This document shows, piece by piece, positions 4,041 to 56,528 of a stretch of DNA of 64,000 nucleotides. The DNA lies in assembly GCA_964649715.1 (NCBI GenBank), contig CAZYTH010000006.1, positions 6,341-70,340 on the forward strand. The letters are read 5' to 3'. Within the stretch, counting starts at the first letter, position 1, and each line of letters begins with the position of its first letter. This DNA comes from an uncultured Candidatus Saccharibacteria bacterium. Its GTDB lineage: Bacteria; Patescibacteriota; Minisyncoccia; Phycocordibacterales; UBA12445. The notes under the pieces are model-generated. The model made no database searches, was not told the DNA's origin, and saw nothing but the letters and a program-made list of their open reading frames with translations. A program made the position numbers and the translations under genes.

Positions 4041-4817
4041 ATGTCCAAAATACAAAATACCCGCCCGCACCGAACAGAATATTCGGGCGAGGCAAAATAC
4101 AAAATAAGAGTTATATATGAAGACAAAGATATTTTGGTTATAGATAAGCCAAGCGGTTTGTCTGTTCACGGCGATGGCAAGAGCGATGTTTACACTCTCT
4201 CCGATTGGATATTGGAGAATTATCCAGGTATTAAAGATGTTGGAGAGCCGATGATATCATCAGAAGGAAAAAAGATTGTTCGACCAGGGATAGTTCATCG
4301 TTTAGATAAGGATACTAGTGGGGTTTTGATCGTGGCAAAAAAAGATGAATCTTTTAAGTTCCTGAAAAGGCAATTCAAAGAAAGAGAGATGGGAAAAATA
4401 TATTTAGCAATTGTTGAGGGTAGGTTCAAGGATGAGAGTGGCATTATTGATAAACCAATTGGTAGAAGTGAAAACGATTTTAGAGCAAAGACAACCGGGG
4501 CTTCGGCCAGAGGAGAAGTTAGAAGCGCTATTACTTATTATAAGGTTATTGAACAATGTAACGGTTATTCGTTTCTCGAAATAAGACCCAAGACAGGAAG
4601 GACACACCAGATAAGGGTTCACTTAAAATCTATAAGTAAGCCTATTGTTTGCGACCAAATATACGGTAAAAATAAAATTTGTCCTAAATGGTTGGGGCGC
4701 CTAGCTCTGCATGCGTTTTCTCTTGAAATAAGGGTGCCAGGAGGCGAGAGAAAGTTGTTTGTTTCGCCCCTGCCTGTGGATTTGAAAAGGGCTCTTGATA
4801 AAATAAGAAGTTTATGA
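4041..4817 (+). CDS. RluA-family 23S rRNA pseudouridine synthase (RluD-like)
   Basis: 'HRLDKDTSGVLIVAKK' catalytic-Asp motif, which is characteristic of the RluA family. 258 aa. Confidence 0.8.
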   Translation: MSKIQNTRPHRTEYSGEAKYKIRVIYEDKDILVIDKPSGLSVHGDGKSDVYTLSDWILENYPGIKDVGEPMISSEGKKIVRPGIVHRLDKDTSGVLIVAKKDESFKFLKRQFKEREMGKIYLAIVEGRFKDESGIIDKPIGRSENDFRAKTTGASARGEVRSAITYYKVIEQCNGYSFLEIRPKTGRTHQIRVHLKSISKPIVCDQIYGKNKICPKWLGRLALHAFSLEIRVPGGERKLFVSPLPVDLKRALDKIRSL

Positions 4818-4844
4818 TAGATTTCAACTACTTAAAATAGTCAA

Positions 4845-5258
4845 ATGAAAACATCAAATATAAAATTTTCGCCAATAGATGTTGAGGAGAGAAAACAATT
4901 CTCCGCTCGTTCGGGTGATACTGTTAGGGTTTCGGTAAAAATAAAAGAGGGAAACAAGACTCGTCTTCAGGATTTTGAAGGAATTATAATTGCCAGAAAA
5001 CATGGTACAGAGCCAGGTGCTACTTTTACAGTTAGAAAGATGGCTAGTGGTGTTGGTGTGGAAAGGATTTTTCCTTTATTCTCTCCAAGTATTGAAAAAA
5101 TAGTAATAAAGAAAAAGGGTACCAAGGCGAGGAAGTCTAAACTTTATTATATAAGAGAAAAGGCTCAGAGAGATGTAAGGAGGAAACTCAAGAGCGAAGT
5201 TGTGAACGAGCCAAGAGATAATAAAGAGGAACTAAAAGAAGAGTCAAAAACAGAATAA
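4845..5258 (+). CDS. rplS: 50S ribosomal protein L19
   Basis: '[30 protein letters not shown]...[21 protein letters not shown]' matches the L19 signature. Has a Lys-rich C-terminal tail. Confidence 0.85.
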
Positions 5259-5336
5259 AATTAAAAAGAGCGGTTAGACCGCTCTTTTAGTTGAAATTTT
5301 ATTTTTATTTTTGCATAATTATGAAAATTGGAATAT

Positions 5337-5420
5337 GCGCAGATGGCGAAATTGGTAGACGCACTACCTTGAGGTGGTAGCGCCCGCAAGGGCATGGAGG
5401 TTCAAATCCTCTTCTGCGCA
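5337..5420 (+). tRNA. tRNA-Leu (anticodon GAG), with a long variable arm
   Basis: Cloverleaf can be read: acceptor GCGCAGA/TCTGCGC, anticodon stem CTACC/GGTAG with loop TTGAGGT, long variable arm, T-arm GGAGGTTCAAATCCTC. No encoded CCA. Confidence 0.8.
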
Positions 5421-5421
5421 C

Positions 5422-5466
5422 AAAACAACCACCCAAAAGCGAAAGCTTTTGGGTGGTTTTGTTTTA
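5422..5466 (+). terminator. Rho-independent terminator hairpin after tRNA-Leu
   Basis: Perfect inverted repeat AAAACAACCACCCAAAAGC gaa GCTTTTGGGTGGTTTTGTTTT. Confidence 0.6.
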
Positions 5467-5468
5467 CA

Positions 5469-5486
5469 CGCAGAAGAGGATTTGAA
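5469..5486 (-). repeat. Inverted partial copy of the tRNA-Leu 3' end (T-arm/acceptor)
   Basis: CGCAGAAGAGGATTTGAA is the exact reverse complement of tRNA-Leu positions 5401-5418. A further 'CCAAATCCTCTTGAG'-like fragment at about 5562 and a repeated 'AAAGCGAAAGCTTTT' lie nearby. Confidence 0.6.
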
Positions 5487-5785
5487 GCCCGATTGAGTAT
5501 TTTTTGTAGCCTGGAAAAGGCGTACAAAAAATCCAATCGGGGTACTGGTCCCGTAAGGACCAAATCCTCTTGAGTCTATAAAAGCGAAAGCTTTTTGTTT
5601 TTTTGCTTGTAGAATAGAGACCCAAAAGACGTATCTTGTATAAAGAAAGATAGGCTGGTTGGAGTACTTAAAATTTTCAATGAAGATTAGTGCGTGATCA
5701 AAACCCCTATATTGATAGACAAAAAAGTATATTTGTTCTAGCATTTATTCAAAAGGTACATTGAACACATAAGGAGGCTTTTATT

Positions 5786-6272: not shown

Positions 6273-6856
6273 TCCTCAGCTTTTTTTATAAGTTCTTCGT
6301 ATATACTACTGCCTTTTAACGCAATGTTAGAAGCCCGCTTTAAATCATGGCTAGAAACATCTTTTAGATTAATTATTCTTTTTAGCGCTAAGTCTCTAAT
6401 TTTTGCATTATCAAGTTGATCGTATTTATTTGCCAAAGAAAGAAGGGTTTCACAATCCCCAGTTAAATTTATCAGTTTTTTCAATGCTATCTCCCTTGCG
6501 TCACTTATTAATTTTAATCCTAAGAATTCATTTAATTCTTTTTCTGTATTTGTTATGTCTCTTGCGATCTTTAATTCGATCCTTGCTTGTATTCTGCCAT
6601 TTTCCCTACCGAAAGATAAATCATTTTTTTGTCCGTCTTCCGAGAGAGATATCAAGTATTTTCCTGTTTCAAAATCATTAATTGAATTAATTTGTTCGCT
6701 TAACCATGAACGTATTGCTGCTCTTATTTCGTCTTCATTTTCATCGTTTATTTTTCTTTTGAAACCGTTAAAAGTTTCTTTTAATTCATTAATACTTTGG
6801 GTAACGTTTTCTTGAACCATATTTGCTTCTTGTTTTTGAAGATTTTTCATTTCCAT
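6254..6856 (-). CDS. Hypothetical coiled-coil protein
   Basis: 200-aa charged, helical-looking ORF. No motifs. Confidence 0.45.
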   Translation of the reverse strand: MEMKNLQKQEANMVQENVTQSINELKETFNGFKRKINDENEDEIRAAIRSWLSEQINSINDFETGKYLISLSEDGQKNDLSFGRENGRIQARIELKIARDITNTEKELNEFLGLKLISDAREIALKKLINLTGDCETLLSLANKYDQLDNAKIRDLALKRIINLKDVSSHDLKRASNIALKGSSIYEELIKKAEENKKPL

Positions 6857-31863: not shown

Positions 31864-32409
31864 ATGAACAAAAAAATTGACACGATAGTGTCATCCCCGT
31901 GCAGACGGGGATCCATGGGTTTTACGTTAATCGAACTCCTCGTCGTCATCGCCATCATCGGTATGCTCGCCTCCACCGTCCTCGTATCTTTGGGTGGTGC
32001 CAGACAAAAGGGAAGAGATGCAAAAAGAATTTCCGACCTCGCAAACATAAGAACAGCTCTTGAGCTTTATTATGATTCCACAGGAACGATGCCAGATGAC
32101 ATATATACTGGATTGCCTTCTGAATTTATCAGCAAGGTGCCAAAGGATTCTGATGATTCACCTTATAAGTATTATGCTTACAAAAGAGCAGGTGCCACAA
32201 ATTGCACCTACTACCACCTCGGTGCCATTCTGGAGGCTGATTCCAATGTCTTAAGAGAGGATTCAAATATAAATTCCGGAGCAGACCCTATTTCAGACAC
32301 CACTAAATATACAAGTTGTGGGGGGACGGCTTTTAACGGAAAAGGCACAAATTGTGCGGGTGATGATGTCTCGCCTAATTCCAATTGTTATGATATTGGA
32401 AACAATTAA
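31864..32409 (+). CDS. pilA: Type IV pilin (major pilin candidate) with a long leader peptide
   Basis: '...RGSMG|FTLIELLVVIAIIGMLASTVLVSL' prepilin peptidase site (G|F, Glu+5). 181 aa. C-terminal Cys pair. Confidence 0.85.
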   Translation: MNKKIDTIVSSPCRRGSMGFTLIELLVVIAIIGMLASTVLVSLGGARQKGRDAKRISDLANIRTALELYYDSTGTMPDDIYTGLPSEFISKVPKDSDDSPYKYYAYKRAGATNCTYYHLGAILEADSNVLREDSNINSGADPISDTTKYTSCGGTAFNGKGTNCAGDDVSPNSNCYDIGNN

Positions 32410-32414
32410 ACAAA

Positions 32415-32999
32415 ATGACTATGAACAACAAAATTAACACAACAGTGTCATCCCCGTGCAAACGGGGATCCAGAGGATTCACCCTCATCGAACTCCTCGT
32501 CGTCATCGCCATCATCGGTATGCTCGCCTCCACCGTCCTCGTATCTTTGGGTGGTGCCAGACAAAAGGGTAGGGACGCAAAGAGAATTTCCGACCTTGCA
32601 AATATAAGGACAGCTCTTGAGCTTTATTATGATTCTAAGGGTGAGATGCCCAAAAGTCTTTATGGCAGTGCTGCGGGTTTGGCTCCTGATTTCATTTCAA
32701 AAGTTCCCACAGACCCAGATGGAAGAAATTATTTTTATTGGCCAATGAAAAGAAGTTCAAGCACGGGAACTAAATGTACTTATTACCATCTTGGTGCTAT
32801 TCTAGAGGCTGATTCAAACGTTTTGGCGGAAGATATGGATAGAAATACCCTTACCTTACCGACAGGAATGGCTGCTTGTGACGGAGACTCTTCTGTGTTG
32901 AACACCGCAGGCTTCCCAGGCAGAAGTGTTGCTTGTGCAACGACTCAGTTGGGTGATGATGATAACAAAAAAGACAGATGTTACGACATAGGAAACTAG
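32415..32999 (+). CDS. pilA: Type IV pilin paralog (tandem duplicate with divergent C-terminal half)
   Basis: N-terminal ~70 aa nearly identical to pilA1, and the DNA includes an ~83-bp 100% identical stretch. 'CTYYHLGAILEADSNVL' is shared. The C-terminus diverges. Confidence 0.85.
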   Translation: MTMNNKINTTVSSPCKRGSRGFTLIELLVVIAIIGMLASTVLVSLGGARQKGRDAKRISDLANIRTALELYYDSKGEMPKSLYGSAAGLAPDFISKVPTDPDGRNYFYWPMKRSSSTGTKCTYYHLGAILEADSNVLAEDMDRNTLTLPTGMAACDGDSSVLNTAGFPGRSVACATTQLGDDDNKKDRCYDIGN

Positions 33000-33047
33000 T
33001 TTCCTCAAACCACCAAACCAGAATCCGAGTCAATGATTTACCACAGC

Positions 33048-33133
33048 CGAAACCGGGTTTATGAGCGTGAAATAAAGACAACCGAAGCCGATAATTTACC
33101 TTCCTTTTACCTCTCTAAACTCGGTTTCTTGGT
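33048..33133 (+). repeat. Structured ~85-nt repeat element, copy 2
   Basis: CGAAACCGGGTTTATGAGCGTGAAATAAAGACAACCGAAGCCGATAAT...CTCTAAACTCGGTTTCTTGG, homologous to copy 1. Confidence 0.55.
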
Positions 33134-33244
33134 TCGTCTTTGATCAAAAGTTCCCCCTATTTGTAATTTGTATACGAATCGTGGTATAATTAGAAGATAA
33201 GTTATTAATTAGTAGTTTAATAGAAGTTATAAGTCGAAAAAAAT

Positions 33245-33703
33245 ATGAAAAAGAAAGGTTTTACGTTGATAGAACTTCTCGTGGTCATTGCGATCATCGG
33301 TATCCTATCATCAGTTGTAGTTGTGTCGTTGAATAGCGCAAGAGCAAAAGCTCGTGATGCAAAGAGAGTTGCAGATTTAGGAGAAGTAAAAAAGGCTTTA
33401 ACATTGTATTTCGATACAAATCAAAATTATCCCGACACTCTATCTGGTCTTATTCCTGTTTATTTACAAACATTGCCAGTTCCGCCAACTGGGACAGAAG
33501 TTTATAATTACACCCCATCAGCAGACAGTCTTAGTTATCACTTAGGAGCTACTTTGGAACAAGTCCTCCCGAATTCAGGAGTTCTCGCTTCAGACAGAGA
33601 TTGTACTTCTGTAGAAGGTGCGACCGCAAATCTTTGCTTTGATGCTGGAGTTGCTGGAGGATTCGATGGAACTCTCGACCTCGTATATGATGTCACTCCG
33701 TAG
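33245..33703 (+). CDS. Type IV pilin (third pilin, short leader)
   Basis: 'MKKKG|FTLIELLVVIAIIGILSSVVVVSL'. An extended -10 TGGTATAAT at about 33182. Terminator hairpin at 33737-33772. Confidence 0.8.
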   Translation: MKKKGFTLIELLVVIAIIGILSSVVVVSLNSARAKARDAKRVADLGEVKKALTLYFDTNQNYPDTLSGLIPVYLQTLPVPPTGTEVYNYTPSADSLSYHLGATLEQVLPNSGVLASDRDCTSVEGATANLCFDAGVAGGFDGTLDLVYDVTP

Positions 33704-33820
33704 TTAAGAGTGTGGCGTTGATTGAATTTAAGAAAAAAACCCCGCAGGGCATCTCGTCCCGCGGGTTTTTCCTTTGTCCTCTCCTCTTAAAACACTTGGA
33801 CTCCCGGAGTCCAAGTGGCC

Positions 33821-34540
33821 TTATATCTCCTCGTTTATTTCTTCCTTTCTGGCAATCATATCCGGCAAATTCCCTTCTGCAAAGTCTTTGTATGCTTTCT
33901 TGTCCTTAAATTGTCCCAAAATAATATCTTTTTCACACTGAATAAGCGGTTCACCGTTTAACTCTTCGGAATACTGTTTCCAGCTAGACCTCACAAACTT
34001 GGACTCCGGGAGTCCAAGTGTTATCTTGTGTACAAGAAAATTTAGATTTATGTAAGAGCTTAAATGAAGCAGATAGGCATCATTTTTTATGTGTTTTGCC
34101 TTGAATCTACCGCCAAATAAGGCACCTTTTCTTCCATATTTTTCGTTAAAATATTTTGAATAGCCCAAAGACATTCTGTGCATAAATTTTTGCACTCCTG
34201 TCTCTTCTTTTTGCACAAGCAGAAAATGAAAATGATTTGGGTTTATGCAGTAGGCGACAATGCCGACCAGTGGTTTTTCCTCATTTTCTTTTTTATTTTT
34301 GTTAAAACTTTTTTGAAGTATACTTCCGATTAAATTAACATTATTAAATTCAAGTATTCCTTGCATGAATCTTCCAAGGTCTTTTTCGTCTTCGAATATT
34401 CGTCTTTTATCAACACCACGATTAAAAACGTGATAATATTCTCCATTTGCGAATTCTGTATTTCTTATTGGCATGTTTGGGATACTACCACTTGGACTCC
34501 GGGTTTCCAAGTACAAAAAACTTGGAAACCCGGAGTCCAA
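33821..34540 (-). CDS. IS200/IS605 family Y1 (HUH) transposase, possibly a REP-associated tyrosine transposase
   Basis: 'YHVFNRGVDKRRIF', 'VAYCINPNHFHFLLV' (HUH = HFH) and 'NEKYGRKGALFGGRFKAKHI' match the TnpA_IS200 fold order. 239 aa, with a C-terminal extension relative to canonical ~140-aa TnpA. Confidence 0.7.
   Translation of the reverse strand: MDSGFPSFLYLETRSPSGSIPNMPIRNTEFANGEYYHVFNRGVDKRRIFEDEKDLGRFMQGILEFNNVNLIGSILQKSFNKNKKENEEKPLVGIVAYCINPNHFHFLLVQKEETGVQKFMHRMSLGYSKYFNEKYGRKGALFGGRFKAKHIKNDAYLLHLSSYINLNFLVHKITLGLPESKFVRSSWKQYSEELNGEPLIQCEKDIILGQFKDKKAYKDFAEGNLPDMIARKEEINEEI
33997..34019. repeat. Palindromic element copy (ACTTGGACTCC-G-GGAGTCCAAGT) inside the transposase gene
   Basis: Perfect 11+1+11 palindrome, translated as '...LGLPESKFV...' within the TnpA reading frame. 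Confidence 0.7.
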
Positions 34541-34628
34541 GTGAAGTCAATTTTTATACAGTAGAGGGGGTGTAGGGGGTGGTGAATGTCCACAGTTTTA
34601 TTTTTATTTTTTGTGCTATAATAATCCT

Positions 34629-35435
34629 ATGGAGACAATTATTTATCTTGCAATTTTTATTCTTGGAACTATTGTCGGAAGTTTTTTGAATGTTGTTATT
34701 CTCCGATACAATACAGGCAAGAGTGTTGGCGGTAGATCTATGTGCTTCACTTGTGGAAAGACATTAAAGCCAAGCCATCTTGTTCCCTTATTTAGTTATA
34801 TTTTACTTCGCGGAAAGTGCGCATTTTGTAAAACGAGAATATCTTCACAATATCCTATAATTGAAGCACTCACGGGGCTTGCCTTCGTGCTTCTCGCATA
34901 CAGAGTCGCATTTGAGCCGATACTTTTCTTTTATCTCACCGTCTTTTCAATATTGCTTATTATCGGAGCTTATGATTATCGCCACAAGATAATTCCCGAC
35001 GGGCTCGTGTTTCTCTTCATCGGACTCTCCCTCCTTCGCGTTGTCGCCGAATATTATGAATTTGGCGGAGATATTGTAAGTGAACTTATGTCGGGTATCT
35101 TCATTTCAGGATTTTTCGCTTTTTTGTGGCTTGTGTCGGGTGGTAGGTGGATGGGTTTTGGCGACGCCAAGCTCGCCCTCGGTATCGGGTGGTTGCTCCC
35201 TTATTGTATGAACGTTAGCGCAATTGTCCTCTCTTTCTTTTTGGGCTCAATCATCGGCCTCTCGGTAATGTTTTTCCAGAAGGTCACCGCAAAGGCATTA
35301 GGCAGGCCATATCATTTTGAAAGTGAGATACCGTTTGCTCCATTTCTTATCCTTGCGACATTCATTACATTTGCCTTCAATTTTGACCTTCTAGGATTTG
35401 CTATGGGCGGTGTTTTTAGCTGTCTTCCTTTTTAG
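34629..35435 (+). CDS. pilD: Prepilin peptidase PilD (A24 family)
   Basis: N-terminal 'GSFLNVVILR', tetra-Cys 'CFTCG...CAFCK' zinc motif, and about 7 TM helices. Start taken at METIIYL. Confidence 0.85.
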   Translation: METIIYLAIFILGTIVGSFLNVVILRYNTGKSVGGRSMCFTCGKTLKPSHLVPLFSYILLRGKCAFCKTRISSQYPIIEALTGLAFVLLAYRVAFEPILFFYLTVFSILLIIGAYDYRHKIIPDGLVFLFIGLSLLRVVAEYYEFGGDIVSELMSGIFISGFFAFLWLVSGGRWMGFGDAKLALGIGWLLPYCMNVSAIVLSFFLGSIIGLSVMFFQKVTAKALGRPYHFESEIPFAPFLILATFITFAFNFDLLGFAMGGVFSCLPF

Positions 35436-35454
35436 TTTGAACAAAAAAGACGAA

Positions 35455-36306
35455 ATGCATAGAGAAAAAAAATTAAAAAACCATTACGGAAAAATTTTTG
35501 CCAAAAACAGGCCCAAATCTTATCTGGCTAGGGGATTTACTATTTTTGAATTGCTTATCGTTATGTCTATCGCGGCGGTGGTCACGGTCATAACTTTCTC
35601 CAGCTTTCCCAAGATGAACAGCACTCTTTCTCTTGACCTTCTTACTCAAGATATCGCCCTTACAATAAGACAGGCACAAGTCTATGGAACAACTGTTTTT
35701 GGTTCTGGGATGTACGACGACCAGTTTAATTCTTATGGGATAGACCTTCCTGACCCTAATCACCCAGATGTAACATCCGGTCAAGAACCATATACGATAA
35801 CCCTGTTTGCTGATATTGGTGTTGAGACAATAGACATTAACGGCAATATCTCCCTAGAACAAAATTATAAATTTGACGGTAAAGTTTCCTCGTCAAATCC
35901 TTGCGGAAATCCTCAAAAAACAATAGATACAACTTATGAAACATCTAACGAATGCGTTGAGCAGTTTAGGATCACAGGGAAGAATTTTATTAAAGCAATT
36001 TGCCCAAAATATAGTGATGGAGATTTAACAAAAGATGGTAGGATAAAAAGGTGTCTAACCGGTAGTGATGATAACTATAAAGTCGCCACTTTTAGTAGGT
36101 CAGATTATATTAAAAATACACAAGACAGACACGTAACCATCGTTTACAACAGGCCAAATCTAAATCCAGAGCTAACTATCTGGAAGAAAGACGATAATTA
36201 TGTTTGTCAGGATTGTAACAATATCGGGATAGTTATTGAATCAGAGGCGGGGCTCAGGAGGGTGGTCGTCGTGTGGTCAAACGGCCAAATAGCAGTGGAC
36301 AGATAA
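35455..36306 (+). CDS. Prepilin-type minor pilin / pseudopilin
   Basis: 'LARG|FTIFELLIVMSIAAVVTVITFSS' class III signal. Large C-terminal globular domain with 4 Cys. Confidence 0.6.
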   Translation: MHREKKLKNHYGKIFAKNRPKSYLARGFTIFELLIVMSIAAVVTVITFSSFPKMNSTLSLDLLTQDIALTIRQAQVYGTTVFGSGMYDDQFNSYGIDLPDPNHPDVTSGQEPYTITLFADIGVETIDINGNISLEQNYKFDGKVSSSNPCGNPQKTIDTTYETSNECVEQFRITGKNFIKAICPKYSDGDLTKDGRIKRCLTGSDDNYKVATFSRSDYIKNTQDRHVTIVYNRPNLNPELTIWKKDDNYVCQDCNNIGIVIESEAGLRRVVVVWSNGQIAVDR

Positions 36307-36332
36307 CATTAGTTATAAAGTTTAGAAAGTAA

Positions 36333-36992
36333 ATGTATAAAGAAAAATATAAAAAAATAAACAAGAAAGCTTTCGACTTTACAGACTTTAGACTTTACAG
36401 ACTTAGTAAAGGGTTTACTTTGATTGAAATAATGGTTGCGGTATCAATATTCGTGACCGTTATGATGATTGTTATCGGTGCGCTTCTTGCCTTAAATGAT
36501 GCAAACAAAAAAGCGCAGGCACTTCGTTCTGTTGTAGAGAATCTCAACTTTGCGATAGAGGATATCTCAAGAAAATTCAAGACGGGGAAAAATTTTAGAT
36601 GTGATGCCGAGAGTTCGATTGTTGGAACTCCATCTTGCAATAATGGAACAAATAAAGTTTATGTTGAGTTCAAGCCATCCGCAAACAGTCAATATGAACC
36701 CCACGTTTATGAGTTTGCGAATGGAAAATTAACACATAAGTATAAAAAGGTCCAAGGAGGAACAACCACTGCTGGATCTTGGATCAACGAAGGTGTAAGC
36801 ATGGTTTCCCCCGAAGTCATATTAAAAGACGTTAAGTTTTATATTTACAGCGATAGCACTACCGGCCAACAGCCGATAATTATTATGAACCTAAGCGGAG
36901 AATTTAACTTGGCTCAATTTGGAGATAATCCCAAGTTTAGAACGCCGTTTAGTATTCAAACGACGGTAAGCCAGAGAATCGGTTCATTCTAA
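36333..36992 (+). CDS. Prepilin-type minor pilin
   Basis: 'SKG|FTLIEIMVAVSIFVTVMMIVIGALLAL' N-terminal motif. Confidence 0.6.
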   Translation: MYKEKYKKINKKAFDFTDFRLYRLSKGFTLIEIMVAVSIFVTVMMIVIGALLALNDANKKAQALRSVVENLNFAIEDISRKFKTGKNFRCDAESSIVGTPSCNNGTNKVYVEFKPSANSQYEPHVYEFANGKLTHKYKKVQGGTTTAGSWINEGVSMVSPEVILKDVKFYIYSDSTTGQQPIIIMNLSGEFNLAQFGDNPKFRTPFSIQTTVSQRIGSF

Positions 36993-37040
36993 AAGCAAAG
37001 ACAATGTTTTTATTAAAGAATATTTAGAGAAAAAGACGTA

Positions 37041-37715
37041 ATGCACGTAATCACATATTTAAAAAATAATTTCAGGAAAATGCTTGCCAAGAGAGGTTAT
37101 AAATCTTGCCCAGCGAGTGGTTTTACGATCATTGAGTCTTTGGTGGCTGTTATGATACTTGTGATGTCGGTTACGGGGCCTCTGGCTCTCGCTGCGAGGG
37201 GGCTTTCATTCTCTACCTATGCGAGAGAAGAGATAACCGCTTTCTATCTTGCGAGTGAGGGGATGGAGACGATAAGAAATATAAGAGATTCAAATTTATT
37301 GAGTCCCGAAAGTGGCAAAGATTGGCTGGGGAGAGACATGGGTGGTAACGGCGGTCTTGGAAGGTGCAAAAATAACCCCTGCTATCTTGATGTTTGGAAA
37401 AGCCCGCCTGAATTAAGAAAGTCTTTTGACGATGTTAATAATGAGACAATTTCTTTGTATCCCACCGATTATTCTCTTTGGGAGTATAAGCTTGGAGATG
37501 ATGAAAATAGCGTAACTAGGTATGGTTATAATTTTGACACATCGGGTAGGACAGAAACTCCAGACCAAACCATTTATTCTCGAAAGTTAATAGTAGAGCC
37601 TATTGGAATACTTGGATCAGAGAATGAGGCGAGGGTTACTGTTATCGTCTCTTGGTATGCAAAGAACAATATCTATCGGGAGGTTATACTAAGTAACAAT
37701 ATTTTTAAACTATAG
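37041..37715 (+). CDS. Prepilin-type minor pilin
   Basis: 'PASG|FTIIESLVAVMILVMSVTGPLALAA' N-terminal motif. Confidence 0.6.
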   Translation: MHVITYLKNNFRKMLAKRGYKSCPASGFTIIESLVAVMILVMSVTGPLALAARGLSFSTYAREEITAFYLASEGMETIRNIRDSNLLSPESGKDWLGRDMGGNGGLGRCKNNPCYLDVWKSPPELRKSFDDVNNETISLYPTDYSLWEYKLGDDENSVTRYGYNFDTSGRTETPDQTIYSRKLIVEPIGILGSENEARVTVIVSWYAKNNIYREVILSNNIFKL

Positions 37716-37729
37716 TTTTAAAAAACCGA

Positions 37730-38275
37730 ATGAATTTTATGAAAAACAAACATCCATATCCCAAAAAGAATAAAGCGTTCGTCCTCCTTATATCTCTGCT
37801 CGTTTCTAGCGTTATTTTGGCCTCGGGACTAGCCGTCACAAGGATAATCGTCCGCCAGATATATCTTGCCTCTGTACAGAGAGATTCTCAACTCGCATTT
37901 TTTGCTGCCGATGCTGGCCTTGAGTGCGCAAGATTTTGGAAAGACAGCGGTGAGACGATTCCATCCCCCCCATCAAACCCCCAGTGTAACGGAGTAGATT
38001 TAAAAAATACCTCAGGTGGTGCCGTCCGTGATTTTGATAATGATTTTGAATTTTATTTTAATATCGGCGGGCAAATTTATGAAAAGCCTGGTGATTTAAA
38101 TGCGGTAGCTCCAAAACTTTGCGTAAAAGTTAAATATACTCCTGCGGGTGTGAGTGGCTCACCCAAGGCCAGAATAGAATCAAGAGGATATAATACCGAG
38201 TGTCTTTCAAATGGACAGCTTTCGGGCGGAAGGGTGGTAGAGAGGAAACTTGTCTATCAATATACAACCAATTAA
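37730..38275 (+). CDS. PilX-like minor pilin (non-canonical N-terminus)
   Basis: 'KNKAFVLLISLLVSSVILASGLAVTRIIV' hydrophobic N-terminus. Last gene of the minor pilin set. Confidence 0.4.
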   Translation: MNFMKNKHPYPKKNKAFVLLISLLVSSVILASGLAVTRIIVRQIYLASVQRDSQLAFFAADAGLECARFWKDSGETIPSPPSNPQCNGVDLKNTSGGAVRDFDNDFEFYFNIGGQIYEKPGDLNAVAPKLCVKVKYTPAGVSGSPKARIESRGYNTECLSNGQLSGGRVVERKLVYQYTTN

Positions 38276-38387: not shown

Positions 38388-40433
<2,046 letters not shown>

Positions 40434-40847: not shown

Positions 40848-42305
40848 GTGGATATCTCAAAACTTACAATCAAACAGGCAGTGAATGGTATTAAATCCCG
40901 GGAATTTTCTGCTACGGAAGTCACCGAATCATATTTGAAAAACATAGAAGAAAAAGACAGGGAGATTGGAGCGTATTTGGAAGTTTTTGAAGATGCAATA
41001 AGTGAGGCAAAAAAAATAGACGATAAGGTCAAAAAAGGTGAAGAATCAGGTATTTTGGCTGGTGTTCCTGTTTGTATAAAAGACAACATAATGATAAAAG
41101 GGAAACACGCATCTTCTGGATCTAAAATACTCGAAGGATATATTTCTCCTTTTGATTCAACTGTTGCCTCAAGGTTAAAAAATGAGGGTGCCGTTTTTTT
41201 GGGTCGGGCAAATATGGATGAATTTGCGATGGGTAGTTCTACTGAAAATTCCGCCTTCAAAATAACAAAAAATCCCCACGATACATCCCGTGTGCCTGGT
41301 GGTTCTTCTGGTGGTTCAGCCTCATCTGTGGCAGGGGATATGTCCCTTGTTTCTTTTGGTTCTGATACTGGTGGTTCGGTTAGACAGCCGGCATCTTTTT
41401 GCGGAATCGTGGGTCTTAAGCCTACTTATGGCGCAGTATCTAGACACGGACTTATGGCGATGGGTAGCTCTCTTGATCAAATCGGACCACTTGCGAAAAC
41501 TGTTGAAGATATTGAGATACTTTTTAATGTTATAAAAGGTGTAGATCCTCTAGATTCTACAAGTCGAGACTTGGACTCCCGGAGTCCAAGTACAAATTCA
41601 ATTGGACTCCGGGAGTCCAAGTCGGCTAATAAGCGAATTGGAGTACCGAGAAATTATATTGGAGAGGGTCTTACTGCTGAAGTGTTGAAGAATTTTGAGG
41701 ACACTTTGTCTTATCTAAGGGAAAATGGATATGAAATCGTAGATGTAGAACTTCCTAATCTCAAATATTCTCTTCCTGTTTATTACGTGGTTATGCCCGC
41801 AGAAGTATCTGCAAATCTTGCTCGCTTTGACGGAGTCAGATATGGCCTCCACAAAGACGGAGAAAATTTGCTTTCTGATTATTACAATACAAGGGGGTCT
41901 GGATTTGGTCCCGAACCAAGAAGAAGAATAATTTTGGGGACATATGTCCTTTCATCTGGTTATTATGATGCTTATTATAAAAAGGCCGAGGATGTAAGGT
42001 CTCTTATTCGCGATGATTTTAATTTTGTTTTTGAAAAAGAGGGATTTTCTGCAATCATAACACCCACTACGCCATCTCCAGCATTCAAGATAGGGGAGAA
42101 ATCAAAAGATCCTCTAACGATGTATTTGGAAGACATTTTTACTGTGCCTGCAAGTATTGTAGGGGCCCCCGCTATATCTGTTCCATCTGGGTATGCGGAA
42201 ATAGAAGGTAAAAAACTCCCACTAGGGGTTCAAATTACAGCCCCACACTTTGGCGAGGATATTTTGTTTTCTATAGGAAAAGATATAGAAAAAATGCTAA
42301 AATAA
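40848..42305 (+). CDS. gatA: Glutamyl-tRNA(Gln)/aspartyl-tRNA(Asn) amidotransferase subunit A, with an in-frame tandem palindromic-element insertion
   Basis: Amidase signature 'GGSSGGSASSVAGD', Ser-cisSer-Lys triad context. The 57-nt insertion encodes 'DLDSRSPSTNSIGLRESKS' between 'DPLDSTS' and 'NKRIGVP'. Confidence 0.9.
   Translation: MDISKLTIKQAVNGIKSREFSATEVTESYLKNIEEKDREIGAYLEVFEDAISEAKKIDDKVKKGEESGILAGVPVCIKDNIMIKGKHASSGSKILEGYISPFDSTVASRLKNEGAVFLGRANMDEFAMGSSTENSAFKITKNPHDTSRVPGGSSGGSASSVAGDMSLVSFGSDTGGSVRQPASFCGIVGLKPTYGAVSRHGLMAMGSSLDQIGPLAKTVEDIEILFNVIKGVDPLDSTSRDLDSRSPSTNSIGLRESKSANKRIGVPRNYIGEGLTAEVLKNFEDTLSYLRENGYEIVDVELPNLKYSLPVYYVVMPAEVSANLARFDGVRYGLHKDGENLLSDYYNTRGSGFGPEPRRRIILGTYVLSSGYYDAYYKKAEDVRSLIRDDFNFVFEKEGFSAIITPTTPSPAFKIGEKSKDPLTMYLEDIFTVPASIVGAPAISVPSGYAEIEGKKLPLGVQITAPHFGEDILFSIGKDIEKMLK
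41569..41622. repeat. Two tandem palindromic element copies (dimer with ACAAATTCA spacer) inserted in-frame in gatA
   Basis: ACTTGGACTCCCGGAGTCCAAGT acaaattca ATTGGACTCCGGGAGTCCAAGT. Same dimer architecture as the hairpin at 34489-34543, whose spacer is ACAAAAAA. Confidence 0.75.
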
Positions 42306-42308
42306 GTT

Positions 42309-42911
42309 ATGGTCTTTTTTGATAATATTCCATGGAATAATCTTGAGTACTGGTTCGCTCTTATTTATAAAATATTTGTAGATTTACCCAGTTATTTAAT
42401 CTACGCTTTTTATTTTTGGGTAAGTGCATTTGAAAGCTTTTGGTTGCAGGTTTTTTTGTGGGTTACCACCACGATTTTTAGTGGAATAACTTTTTATTCT
42501 TTGTATAAAATATGGGAGATAAATAATTTTGATTGGGAAAAATACAAAGCAATTTTTTTTATTGAAAACAAGGATGAAGCCGAAAAGATAATGGTCGATA
42601 AAAAATGGGTAGATATTTTAGGTCATCTAGAAAGTGACCGTCCTGCAAGTTGGACATTGGCTATAATCGAGAGCGACAAGATATTGGACGAGCTTCTTAA
42701 GGAAAAAGGTTTTGATGGTGCAAACGTGGGAGAGAGACTAAAGAGCGAAAAGGCTGGGAAGCTAAAAAATCTTCAAGATGCATGGGAGGCTCACAAAATA
42801 AGGAATAAGATTGCTCACGAGAGCGGATATATTCTAGAGAAGAGGGACGCCAGAAAGGCAATAGCACATTATGAGTCTGTGTTTCGCGAATTAGGTTTTT
42901 TAAATTCCTAG
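42309..42911 (+). CDS. Hypothetical membrane protein
   Basis: 200 aa. Two N-terminal TM helices, then a soluble domain. Followed by a 14-bp-stem hairpin. Confidence 0.4.
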   Translation: MVFFDNIPWNNLEYWFALIYKIFVDLPSYLIYAFYFWVSAFESFWLQVFLWVTTTIFSGITFYSLYKIWEINNFDWEKYKAIFFIENKDEAEKIMVDKKWVDILGHLESDRPASWTLAIIESDKILDELLKEKGFDGANVGERLKSEKAGKLKNLQDAWEAHKIRNKIAHESGYILEKRDARKAIAHYESVFRELGFLNS

Positions 42912-42917
42912 AAGCAG

Positions 42918-42962
42918 AACTTCTACGATTTTTTCAAACGCAGAAGTTCTGCTTCTAGGAAA
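42918..42962 (+). terminator. Large hairpin terminator
   Basis: GAAGCAGAACTTCT acgattttttcaaacgc AGAAGTTCTGCTTC, a perfect 14-bp stem. Confidence 0.55.
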
Positions 42963-42989
42963 TATAAATATTAATTAAAAAATAAATTT

Positions 42990-56125: not shown

Positions 56126-56528
56126 AGTACAATACCTCCTTTTTTATCATCTAATTACAATCGTAACTTATTTTTCCTAGAAGCTCAACGCCTACGAAAT
56201 GCGGAGTTATACTTCTAGGAAAATTAAAAATATGAGATAATAATCTTATATGAAATATTTTAATAAAGATTTTTGGAAATTTTCCGCGCAATTTGTGATA
56301 ATAATTGCGATATCTTTATTTCTTATGTCTATGATAAGTGGGTATATTGGGAGCGGAGGAGGGGAGGCAAGTTTGACCAGATAATTTTTTCTCAGTATCT
56401 CATCGCAAGGAAAAAGCTCCTTTTGGAGTACTCTTTTTATTCGCAGGGAGAAATTATTTTCCCCAACTCCCTTCTGTGTGAATCCTCTTCGCAAAAGAAA
56501 AACACCCGAAGGTGCTTTTCTTAATTGT

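Follow-up and report, generated by a model that had tools for sequence, protein, structure and literature searches.

Our analysis of a 64,000-nucleotide stretch of contig CAZYTH010000006.1 from an uncultured Candidatus Saccharibacteria bacterium (positions 6,341 to 70,340; hereafter the window) indicates that gatA carries, in frame, an inverted doublet of a short palindrome, and that the same palindrome family flanks a transposase gene lying about 7 kb upstream of this doublet. With a probability that we put at roughly 0.8, the gatA element is a REPIN, i.e. a doublet of repetitive extragenic palindromic (REP) units that forms a hairpin, and belongs to a REP family tied to this transposase, a Y1/HUH enzyme of the type of the REP-associated tyrosine transposases (RAYTs); in GatA it would be a passenger, tolerated in a permissive loop. 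A Y1 transposase gene bordered by palindromes of its own, together with inverted doublets at other places, points to the REP/REPIN-RAYT arrangement.

The gatA doublet occupies positions 41568-41623 on the forward strand and consists of two inverted REP units, which together form a perfect 22-bp hairpin with a 12-nt loop. Unit 1, TTGGACTCCCGGAGTCCAA at 41571-41589, has C as its central base and is read as LDSRSPS, while unit 2, TTGGACTCCGGGAGTCCAA at 41602-41620, has G at its centre and is read as (I)GLRESK; in order, the sequence runs GAC TTGGACTCCCGGAGTCCAA GTACAAATTCAA TTGGACTCCGGGAGTCCAA GTC. Both units match the 19-nt consensus core of the palindrome, TTGGACTCCSGGAGTCCAA, with 0 mismatches, and the arms (41568-41589 and 41602-41623, 22 nt each) are 100% complementary across the 12 nt between them. 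Because the central base differs (C versus G), the two units are inverted relative to each other. The first-pass annotation, made from the sequence without database searches, had recognised the two palindrome copies, which are indeed there, and had called them tandem; a tandem repeat is excluded, since the element is one long hairpin from an inverted doublet. Folded as single-stranded DNA, the doublet has an energy of -27.8 kcal/mol (z = -10.4), and the 111-nt RNA stretch that holds the hairpin reaches -55.3 kcal/mol (z = -7.8). The hairpin itself is 56 nt long, whereas the 19-codon segment that holds it (41568-41624) measures 57 nt; the hairpin-encoded residues of GatA, D241-S259, are read DLDSRSPSTNSIGLRESKS. 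The length of 57 nt, a multiple of three, that had been ascribed to the element is therefore that of the codon segment (the element had also been placed 2 nt off), while neither the hairpin nor the related doublet beside the transposase gene, of 55 nt, has a length divisible by three. An Rfam search returned tRNAs only, with no RNA family at the hairpins. An intein, an intron or a programmed frameshift at this place can be rejected, the segment being 57 nt long, in frame and stop-free.

The core of the palindrome has seven matches at five loci in the window, five of them exact and two with 2 mismatches, where dinucleotide-preserving shuffles give an expectation of 0.00, and the palindrome has a G+C content of 57-62% against about 37% in the window. 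A unit with 12-nt arms, CACTTGGACTCCCGGAGTCCAAGTG, lies 3' of the transposase gene at 33793-33817 and ends 4 nt before the stop-codon edge at 33821; another lies in frame within the transposase open reading frame (ORF) at 33997-34019, where it encodes LGLPESK, residues 153-159. On the other side of the gene, 15 nt upstream of the start codon, a REPIN-type hairpin at 34489-34543 has perfect, 100% complementary arms of 24 nt and a 7-nt spacer, ACAAAAA (fold z = -12.9). The likeness of this hairpin to the gatA element, which the first-pass annotation had pointed out, is confirmed: both are doublets of the same architecture, and the spacer start GTACAAA is common to the two. The arms of the transposase-side doublet are hybrids (ACTCC/GGTTT and AAACC/GGAGT) with compensating changes. 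Taken singly, its hybrid units, TTGGACTCC-G-GGTTTCCAA and TTGGAAACC-C-GGAGTCCAA, are poor palindromes, and jointly they give the perfect 24-nt pairing; their AAACC/GGTTT halves have a counterpart in the REP of L014/L016, which has the nearest transposase relative (L-numbers denote DNA stretches from other genomes and P-numbers, used below, GatA homologues).

The transposase gene (33821-34474, reverse strand) encodes a RAYT-like Y1 (HUH) tyrosine transposase of 217 aa with the HUH motif HFH and a conserved Tyr141. The protein scores 37 bits against the Pfam family Y1_Tnp/IS200-like (PF01797, cut-off 23) and has 1864 homologues at E <= 1e-5. Those homologues that have a source name come from Parcubacteria-type lineages of the Candidate Phyla Radiation (CPR), and several bear the Joint Genome Institute (JGI) label 'REP element-mobilizing transposase RayT'. 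Both H81/H83 and Y141 are invariant in 120 homologues. For the structural model (predicted local distance difference test score, pLDDT, 88), the best fold match in the PDB is 4er8_A, the E. coli REP-associated transposase bound to a REP hairpin (E = 8.6e-5; template-modelling (TM) score 0.56 on the target), followed by the transposases of IS608 and ISDra2, with 2a6m, 2xm3 and 2vjv among the best. The enzyme is a distant RAYT subfamily. An autonomous element of the IS200/IS605 type was considered and rejected, since only the hairpins are dispersed, while the window has a single copy of the gene, in a position that is syntenic between genomes.

Moreover, the association between palindrome and enzyme recurs in related genomes. 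The transposase occupies one conserved site in the window, in a Nomurabacteria genome (L011/L012) and in L014/L016, and the equivalent site is empty of it in L015 and L017; this conserved chromosomal site suggests vertical inheritance. Type IV pilus genes surround the site (31864-38275 in the window), with pilin genes on one side and the gene for the prepilin peptidase on the other, and ligA-gatC-gatA follows a few kb downstream. In all seven genomes, the window and six others, REPs stand on both sides of the transposase gene, one 5' and one 3', and the gene itself contains one or two; L020, L021 and L022, with more distant homologues in other genomic contexts, are among these genomes and follow the same rule. 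The outer stem CTTGG/CCAAG is common to 7/7 genomes and the inner stem is genome-specific, the palindrome being ACTTGGACTCC-S-GGAGTCCAAGT in the window, ACTTGGAGGTT-S-AACCTCCAAGT in L011, ACTTGGAAGC-YSR-GCTTCCAAGT in L013 and TTTGGAAACC-S-GGTTTCCAAA in L014/L016. Genome-specific inner stems would be the expected pattern if palindrome and enzyme co-evolve. Two of these stretches hold something further of their own. In L013 (3047-6006) there is a second Y1 transposase gene, at 4639-5292, with its own, different palindrome family, AGAGGAGAACSGTTCTCCTCT; two doublets belong to this family, and one of the two falls within an ORF of 246 aa that has no Pfam match. In L022 (10001-12652) the homologous transposase adjoins a reverse transcriptase gene and a bAvd-like gene, an arrangement resembling a diversity-generating retroelement, and REPs flank the reverse transcriptase.

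The host of the doublet is a sound gene. Directly downstream of gatC, in the gene order ligA, gatC, gatA, it extends over 40848-42305 on the forward strand as an intact ORF of 485 aa. Its product scores 561.5 bits against TIGR00132 (cut-off 481), covers profile positions 5-464 of 466, and is thus full length; the match to Pfam Amidase has an E-value of 2.4e-142. In an alignment of 120 GatA homologues K78 and S177 are invariant and S153 nearly so, and these we take to be the positions of the amidase-signature catalytic Lys-cisSer-Ser. Like ligA, gatA is full length and keeps the family-invariant residues, and it is presumably essential. The insert lies between DSTS and KRIGVP, as had been described, with neither a frameshift nor a stop codon in the ORF around it; the earlier account of an in-frame element between conserved GatA peptides in an unbroken gene thus stands.

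How much does the doublet lengthen the protein? Linker lengths were counted from DSTS to IGVP, or to (K/R)IG(V/L)P, among the 120 best-scoring GatA homologues listed; the shortest has 12 residues, the longest 43, and 14 is the commonest length, and the alignment shows a variable linker between DSTS and (K/R)IG(V/L)P in the solved GatA sequences already. The nearest relatives (Parcubacteria/Nomurabacteria, with an identity of about 70-72%) have a linker of 13-15 aa, and that of the window has 24 aa. A comparison at the level of codons was made with four related genomes read as DNA (L011, L015, L016, L017). They have in common a native loop of the form R-x-Y-P-x-x..., for example REYPNNSDRSFSKK, in a linker of 14 aa each, and all four encode the conserved xYP motif, which the window gatA does not have; its loop instead reads R-[19 REP-encoded residues]-AN-KR. 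The window gatA is short of about 9 native codons, those of the xYP motif included, and has gained 19, so that the net change is +30 nt and the net gain only about 10 residues, not the roughly 19 that the first-pass annotation had supposed. The gatA event is therefore a replacement-type indel, and divisibility by three belongs to the net change only. Since in a presumed essential gene only net changes of this kind could survive, it shows no property of the element. The earlier picture of a mobile unit tolerated when its length preserves the frame has to be divided accordingly: the doublet is a copy of a transposase-associated palindrome, of the REP/REPIN kind held to be mobilised by such transposases, but its own length is not a multiple of three.

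The alignment of GatA orthologues that the first-pass annotation had envisaged came out in its favour, in that the insert is absent from the four genomes read as DNA and from the other protein homologues, and the loop is polymorphic in length. The REP-encoded peptides are absent from 119/119 GatA homologues, and the gatA loop DNA of L011, L015, L016 and L017 contains no palindrome with arms of at least 8 nt. An AlphaFold model of GatA built on 120 homologues has a mean pLDDT of 90.7 and a predicted TM-score of 0.92, and superposes on GatA of the S. aureus GatCAB (2df4_A) with a TM-score of 0.93; its sole segment below 50 in pLDDT, residues 246-259, lies within the insert. Going by this model, the insert is a polar, probably disordered 19-residue stretch that GatA tolerates. 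Other homologues carry long loops as well. At the equivalent GatA loop of P0057 (L018 935-1015; GCA_964373585.1) there is an unrelated in-frame palindromic insert with 100% complementary arms of 20 nt (936-955 and 996-1015) and a nested 14-nt hairpin, in a linker of 32 aa. P0046, a homologue of 502 aa, has a 43-residue loop insert with a Cys-rich motif, CGHCGRFAHLDKSQC, and in L019 (P0102), likewise a long-loop GatA, the loop contains nothing beyond small GC palindromes of 6-7 nt. The palindromic insert in L018, together with the long loops in other homologues, supports the permissiveness of this GatA loop.

A single REP unit is present in ligA (38400-40433, forward strand), which encodes an NAD-dependent DNA ligase of 677 aa. 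It lies at 40183-40203, in frame and read TWTPGVQ, in the linker between the helix-hairpin-helix (HhH) and BRCT domains, and matches the window's own current REP perfectly. Here the linker is of the usual size (21 residues in the window and 20-23 in five orthologues), with no net length gain. At the homologous site the ligA genes of L014 (805-2829) and L016 (7562-9589) contain a decayed REP-like sequence, ACTTGGGCTTCGGGCCATCAAGT, read STWASGHQV, in which the outer stem of the family is kept and the palindrome is lost; by a count made by eye, 17/26 bases are identical to those of the window. The ligA of L015 possibly holds a still more decayed trace (15/23 bases, a by-eye figure rather than a computed one). 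L014 and L016 are probably one genome sampled twice, because their ligA region sequences are identical. Given this decayed sequence, a simple recent insertion is not the sole reading of the ligA copy, which may be old and refreshed, or its site a hot spot. Thus the repeated insertion into essential genes that had been proposed from gatA and ligA together is borne out to the extent that a second in-frame copy exists, but this one adds no net length and has a decayed counterpart in L014/L016.

The palindrome lends itself to translation. Since none of its six frames contains a stop codon, the 25-nt REP can be read through; the frames read HLDS(R/G)... and LGL(P/R)ESK, among others. All three frames are in use: TWTPGVQ in ligA, LGLPESK in the transposase, and LDSRSPS with GLRESK in gatA. 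LGLPESK also occurs outside the window. A census of the palindrome gave 2 unrelated high-GC matches in the scan of genome contigs and 8 stretches in that of metagenome contigs, of which only L006, a 1.2-kb groundwater metagenome contig, is related; at 146-164 it carries an identical REP with the same flanks, in frame within a murD-like ORF, and the alignment of this ORF to MurD (3lk7) ends before the REP. The murD-like ORF has 343 aa as against about 440-450 for MurD and, in our judgement, looks truncated at its C-terminus; the contig bears a low-coverage label (cov-2).

Within the transposase family, too, the hairpin is translated. In an alignment of 120 homologues the LGLPESK of the internal REP coincides with a motif found across the family, [LFI]-G-x1-x2-x3-[SPA]-K. 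A palindrome centred on the x2 codon requires the x1 and x3 codons to be reverse-complementary, and this served as the test: x1 and x3 are compatible in 84/94 sequences, where shuffling x3 gives 51.6 +/- 3.9 and a maximum of 65 in 2000 shuffles. The common x1-x3 pairs are S-A, S-T, G-T, N-V, G-A, D-V, H-V, C-A, R-T and L-E. When the tested positions were displaced by multiples of 7 residues, five of six displacements gave 0-22/92 and the sixth, of -7, gave 52, while the motif itself gave 83/92. This co-variation argues that the hairpin is maintained at the level of the nucleic acid within the ORF. A second such motif, in a variable loop, is found in 49/120 homologues, and residues 151-160 of the transposase, the motif block, are the lowest-confidence part of its model. 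The alignment thus shows that palindromes of this transposase family are routinely translated. The internal copy might be a master copy or an autoregulatory site. A palindrome that is already stop-free and translatable could colonise the loop-coding DNA of host genes, and we entertain, as a tentative and rather doubtful extension, that a REP hairpin natively coding in the Parcubacteria transposase family constitutes a distinct variant of the REPtron (a RAYT gene with its flanking REPs), in which the stop-free palindrome colonises or overwrites loops of host genes (gatA, ligA, murD) and drives loop turnover in essential genes of a gene-dense, reduced genome.

How could the doublet have come to lie in gatA? 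Mobilisation by the transposase, the neutrality of the insert and the order of insertion and deletion are what we infer here. By analogy with solved RAYT and IS200/IS605 relatives, the transposase would act on single-stranded DNA, where it would recognise the REP hairpin, cut it and religate the ends, and REP units would thereby be copied in trans to new sites. One such event would have put the doublet into the DNA of the variable, solvent-exposed GatA loop, or exchanged it with that DNA; the loss of about 27 nt of native loop DNA would belong to this event or to a subsequent one, and with a net change of +30 nt the frame is kept. Changes of a net length other than 3n, changes bearing a stop codon and changes hitting structured parts of essential genes would be lethal and lost; the insert would have survived because its net length is 3n, it contains no stop codon and the loop is permissive. 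On this account it would be a neutral or slightly deleterious passenger and not an adaptation.

Several observations weigh against the assignment of the gatA doublet to a REPIN-RAYT system, or at least complicate it. The units in the window end in GTGG, GTGT, GTGA, GTAC, GTCG or GAGG, with no GTAG tag; CTAC...GTAG is present in L014/L016 and in some L013 units. The transposase reaches 27.7 bits against the NCBIfam profile REP_Tyr_transpos (NF047646), below the cut-off of 80, and the profile of its family found no sequence among PDB chains at E <= 1. There was no clean insertion into gatA, and missing native codons are not predicted by the peel-and-paste transposition of IS200/IS605 elements. 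The nearest GatA sequences are only about 70-72% identical, and mobilisation is read from comparison at that distance. The copy count is that of the 64-kb window. Besides the two transposase-flanking loci, all copies in the window (a small sample) lie inside ORFs, those of ligA, gatA and the transposase, so that the predominantly extragenic location typical of REPs is not seen in the window, while the extra copies in related genomes are mostly intergenic; with about 88% of the window coding, intergenic landing sites are scarce. Finally, a perfect 22-bp hairpin within an essential mRNA could carry functional consequences.

The absence of a clean insertion raises the question of whether the loop was overwritten rather than entered. 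In template-directed replacement, REPs would overwrite loop DNA or decayed REPs, by gene conversion or by transposase strand exchange, which would leave the length roughly as it was and preserve the identity of the copy with the current consensus. The exchange of about 9 native codons for 19 in gatA, the REP in ligA without net length change and the decayed REP-like ACTTGGGCTTCGGGCCATCAAGT at the same ligA site in L014/L016, where the window has a perfect copy, are all in keeping with this. However, orthologous gatA loops hold no REP remnant, the four genomes read as DNA having the xYP motif in common; linker length is variable in any case, and deletions at a later time could account for the figures; and the ligA likeness comes from one other genome and from 17 of 26 bases counted by eye. 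We consider replacement unlikely, though it comes closest among the alternatives. It is distinctly less probable that the gatA hairpin is a selected cis-acting element, be it a translational pause, an RNase III or stability determinant, or a binding site of a domesticated transposase. A perfectly paired stem and the compensating changes on both arms of the transposase-side doublet would fit such a role, as would the codon co-variation in the transposase gene (84/94 versus 51.6 +/- 3.9), from which it follows that hairpins of this family can be under selection at the nucleic-acid level inside ORFs. In gatA, on the other hand, no orthologue has a hairpin at the site, hence there is no conservation that supports a function; no RNA family matches in the region; and a recent copy would be expected to have just as perfect a stem.

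Selection could instead have acted on the protein, with the enlarged surface loop retained for a partner such as GatB, GatC, the tRNA or a host factor. The loop is recurrently enlarged elsewhere, to 32-43 aa in P0057 and P0046, and the insert is polar, yet the peptide is simply the palindrome translated in two frames, it is predicted to be disordered (pLDDT below 50), and the same DNA read in other frames in ligA and the transposase gives unrelated peptides; we find such an adaptation very improbable. Least credible of all is an assembly artefact or a gatA pseudogene. The sequence does come from a metagenome contig, but gatA continues in a single frame on both sides of the element, the ORF has its full length and every family-invariant residue, the element is shorter than a sequencing read, and the repeat occurs in frame in two further genes of the window as well as in the murD-like ORF of the groundwater contig L006. 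By comparison, a REPIN mobilised by the RAYT-type transposase and tolerated in the GatA loop remains our preferred explanation.

REPIN-RAYT systems, in which REP doublets occur as hairpins together with a single-copy tyrosine transposase, are known from Pseudomonas and E. coli (PMC3116915, PMC5581495, PMC3479197) and are well described in Proteobacteria (PMC3116915, PMC5581495). The system in the window resembles them in its short GC-rich palindromes, which occur singly and as inverted doublets forming a long hairpin; in the REPtron layout, a Y1/HUH transposase gene with the same palindromes on either side; and in that the transposase is found once in the window and at a conserved site in relatives, with a palindrome specific to genome and enzyme. 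It differs in its Parcubacteria/CPR host, in the distant enzyme subfamily, in having no GTAG tag in the window, in the REP copy in frame inside the transposase ORF, and in that both window copies away from the transposase are intragenic, where REPs are typically extragenic. With IS200/IS605 elements it has in common the catalytic fold and, presumably, hairpin DNA as the recognised substrate; unlike in those elements, the window has just one copy of the transposase gene, at a conserved syntenic site, there is no tnpB, and the hairpin alone is dispersed. As noted in passages of PMC3733652, a hairpin near the 5' end of the transposase mRNA down-regulates expression in IS200.

Translated REPs are not in themselves new. 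The sections of Di Nocera, De Gregorio and Rocco 2013 (BMC Genomics 14:522; PMC3733652) that deal with intragenic repeats describe REPs of the GTAG/CGTC type wholly within ORFs of known proteins in several species, more than half of these inserts being dimers or groups and encoding 20-30 aa. Many of the host genes serve DNA synthesis and repair or encode RNA-binding proteins; those named in the sections include uvrA, recB, a DNA ligase gene (Opitutus terrae) and genes for tRNA synthetases and a pseudouridine synthase, and flexible linkers or loops are proposed there as the places that receive the REPs; they also mention GTGG variants of the GTAG tag in O. terrae. In-frame REPs, doublets included, were thus already known, and the apparent lack of precedent for the gatA insert falls away. 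The present elements differ from these in phylum and have unrelated palindrome sequences; gatA is not among the examples in the sections concerned; and here the net length was measured against orthologues, with native codons replaced. The same sections treat the Rickettsia palindromic elements (RPEs), palindromic selfish DNA found in frame in likely functional genes, and state that some RPEs are equivalent to such elements, that the short, CGTC-type RPE-4 and RPE-6 have no known dedicated transposase, and that RPE-1 inserts are 'longer'. In-frame palindromes in functional-looking gatA and ligA genes of a reduced-genome host recall the RPEs, as shared behaviour only; unlike them the present palindrome has a candidate cognate transposase 7 kb away, and with a different host phylum and palindrome we do not claim membership of the RPEs. 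None of the papers in the collection searched links REP or RAYT with CPR. What is new, then, is the host phylum, gatA as a target, the measured replacement of native codons, and the co-varying in-frame REP in the transposase gene.

The window contains other hairpins as well. Downstream of a tRNA gene (5337-5420), by about 40 nt, its 3' part is repeated in inverted orientation, with arms 5394-5428 and 5459-5493 that are 83% complementary; between these tRNA-derived arms lies a terminator-like hairpin (5427-5458), and the whole (5337-5493) may be an old integration-site remnant. Two intergenic hairpins, at 42898-42968 and 56168-56227, have a common arm, TTCCTAGAAG/CTTCTAGGAA, and may represent a second, small palindrome family or related terminators. 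In the window this arm occurs exactly at only those two loci, and when 1 mismatch is allowed the number of matches, 11, does not exceed what chance would give (6.3).

More generally, our results extend REP/RAYT systems to the Candidate Phyla Radiation, whose genomes are roughly 1 Mb in size and are usually described as repeat-poor. After Rickettsia, this would be a second reduced-genome bacterium that tolerates translated hairpin repeats in essential genes, and weak selection or scarce intergenic space may push such elements into permissive protein loops. Annotators should be aware that an odd polar insert in a conserved CPR protein can be the translation of a repeat. The gatA insert offers a test case for the effects of an insert on GatCAB, while the co-varying hairpin in the transposase gene provides a lead on the origin of the REP family and on how its palindromes are matched to their enzyme.

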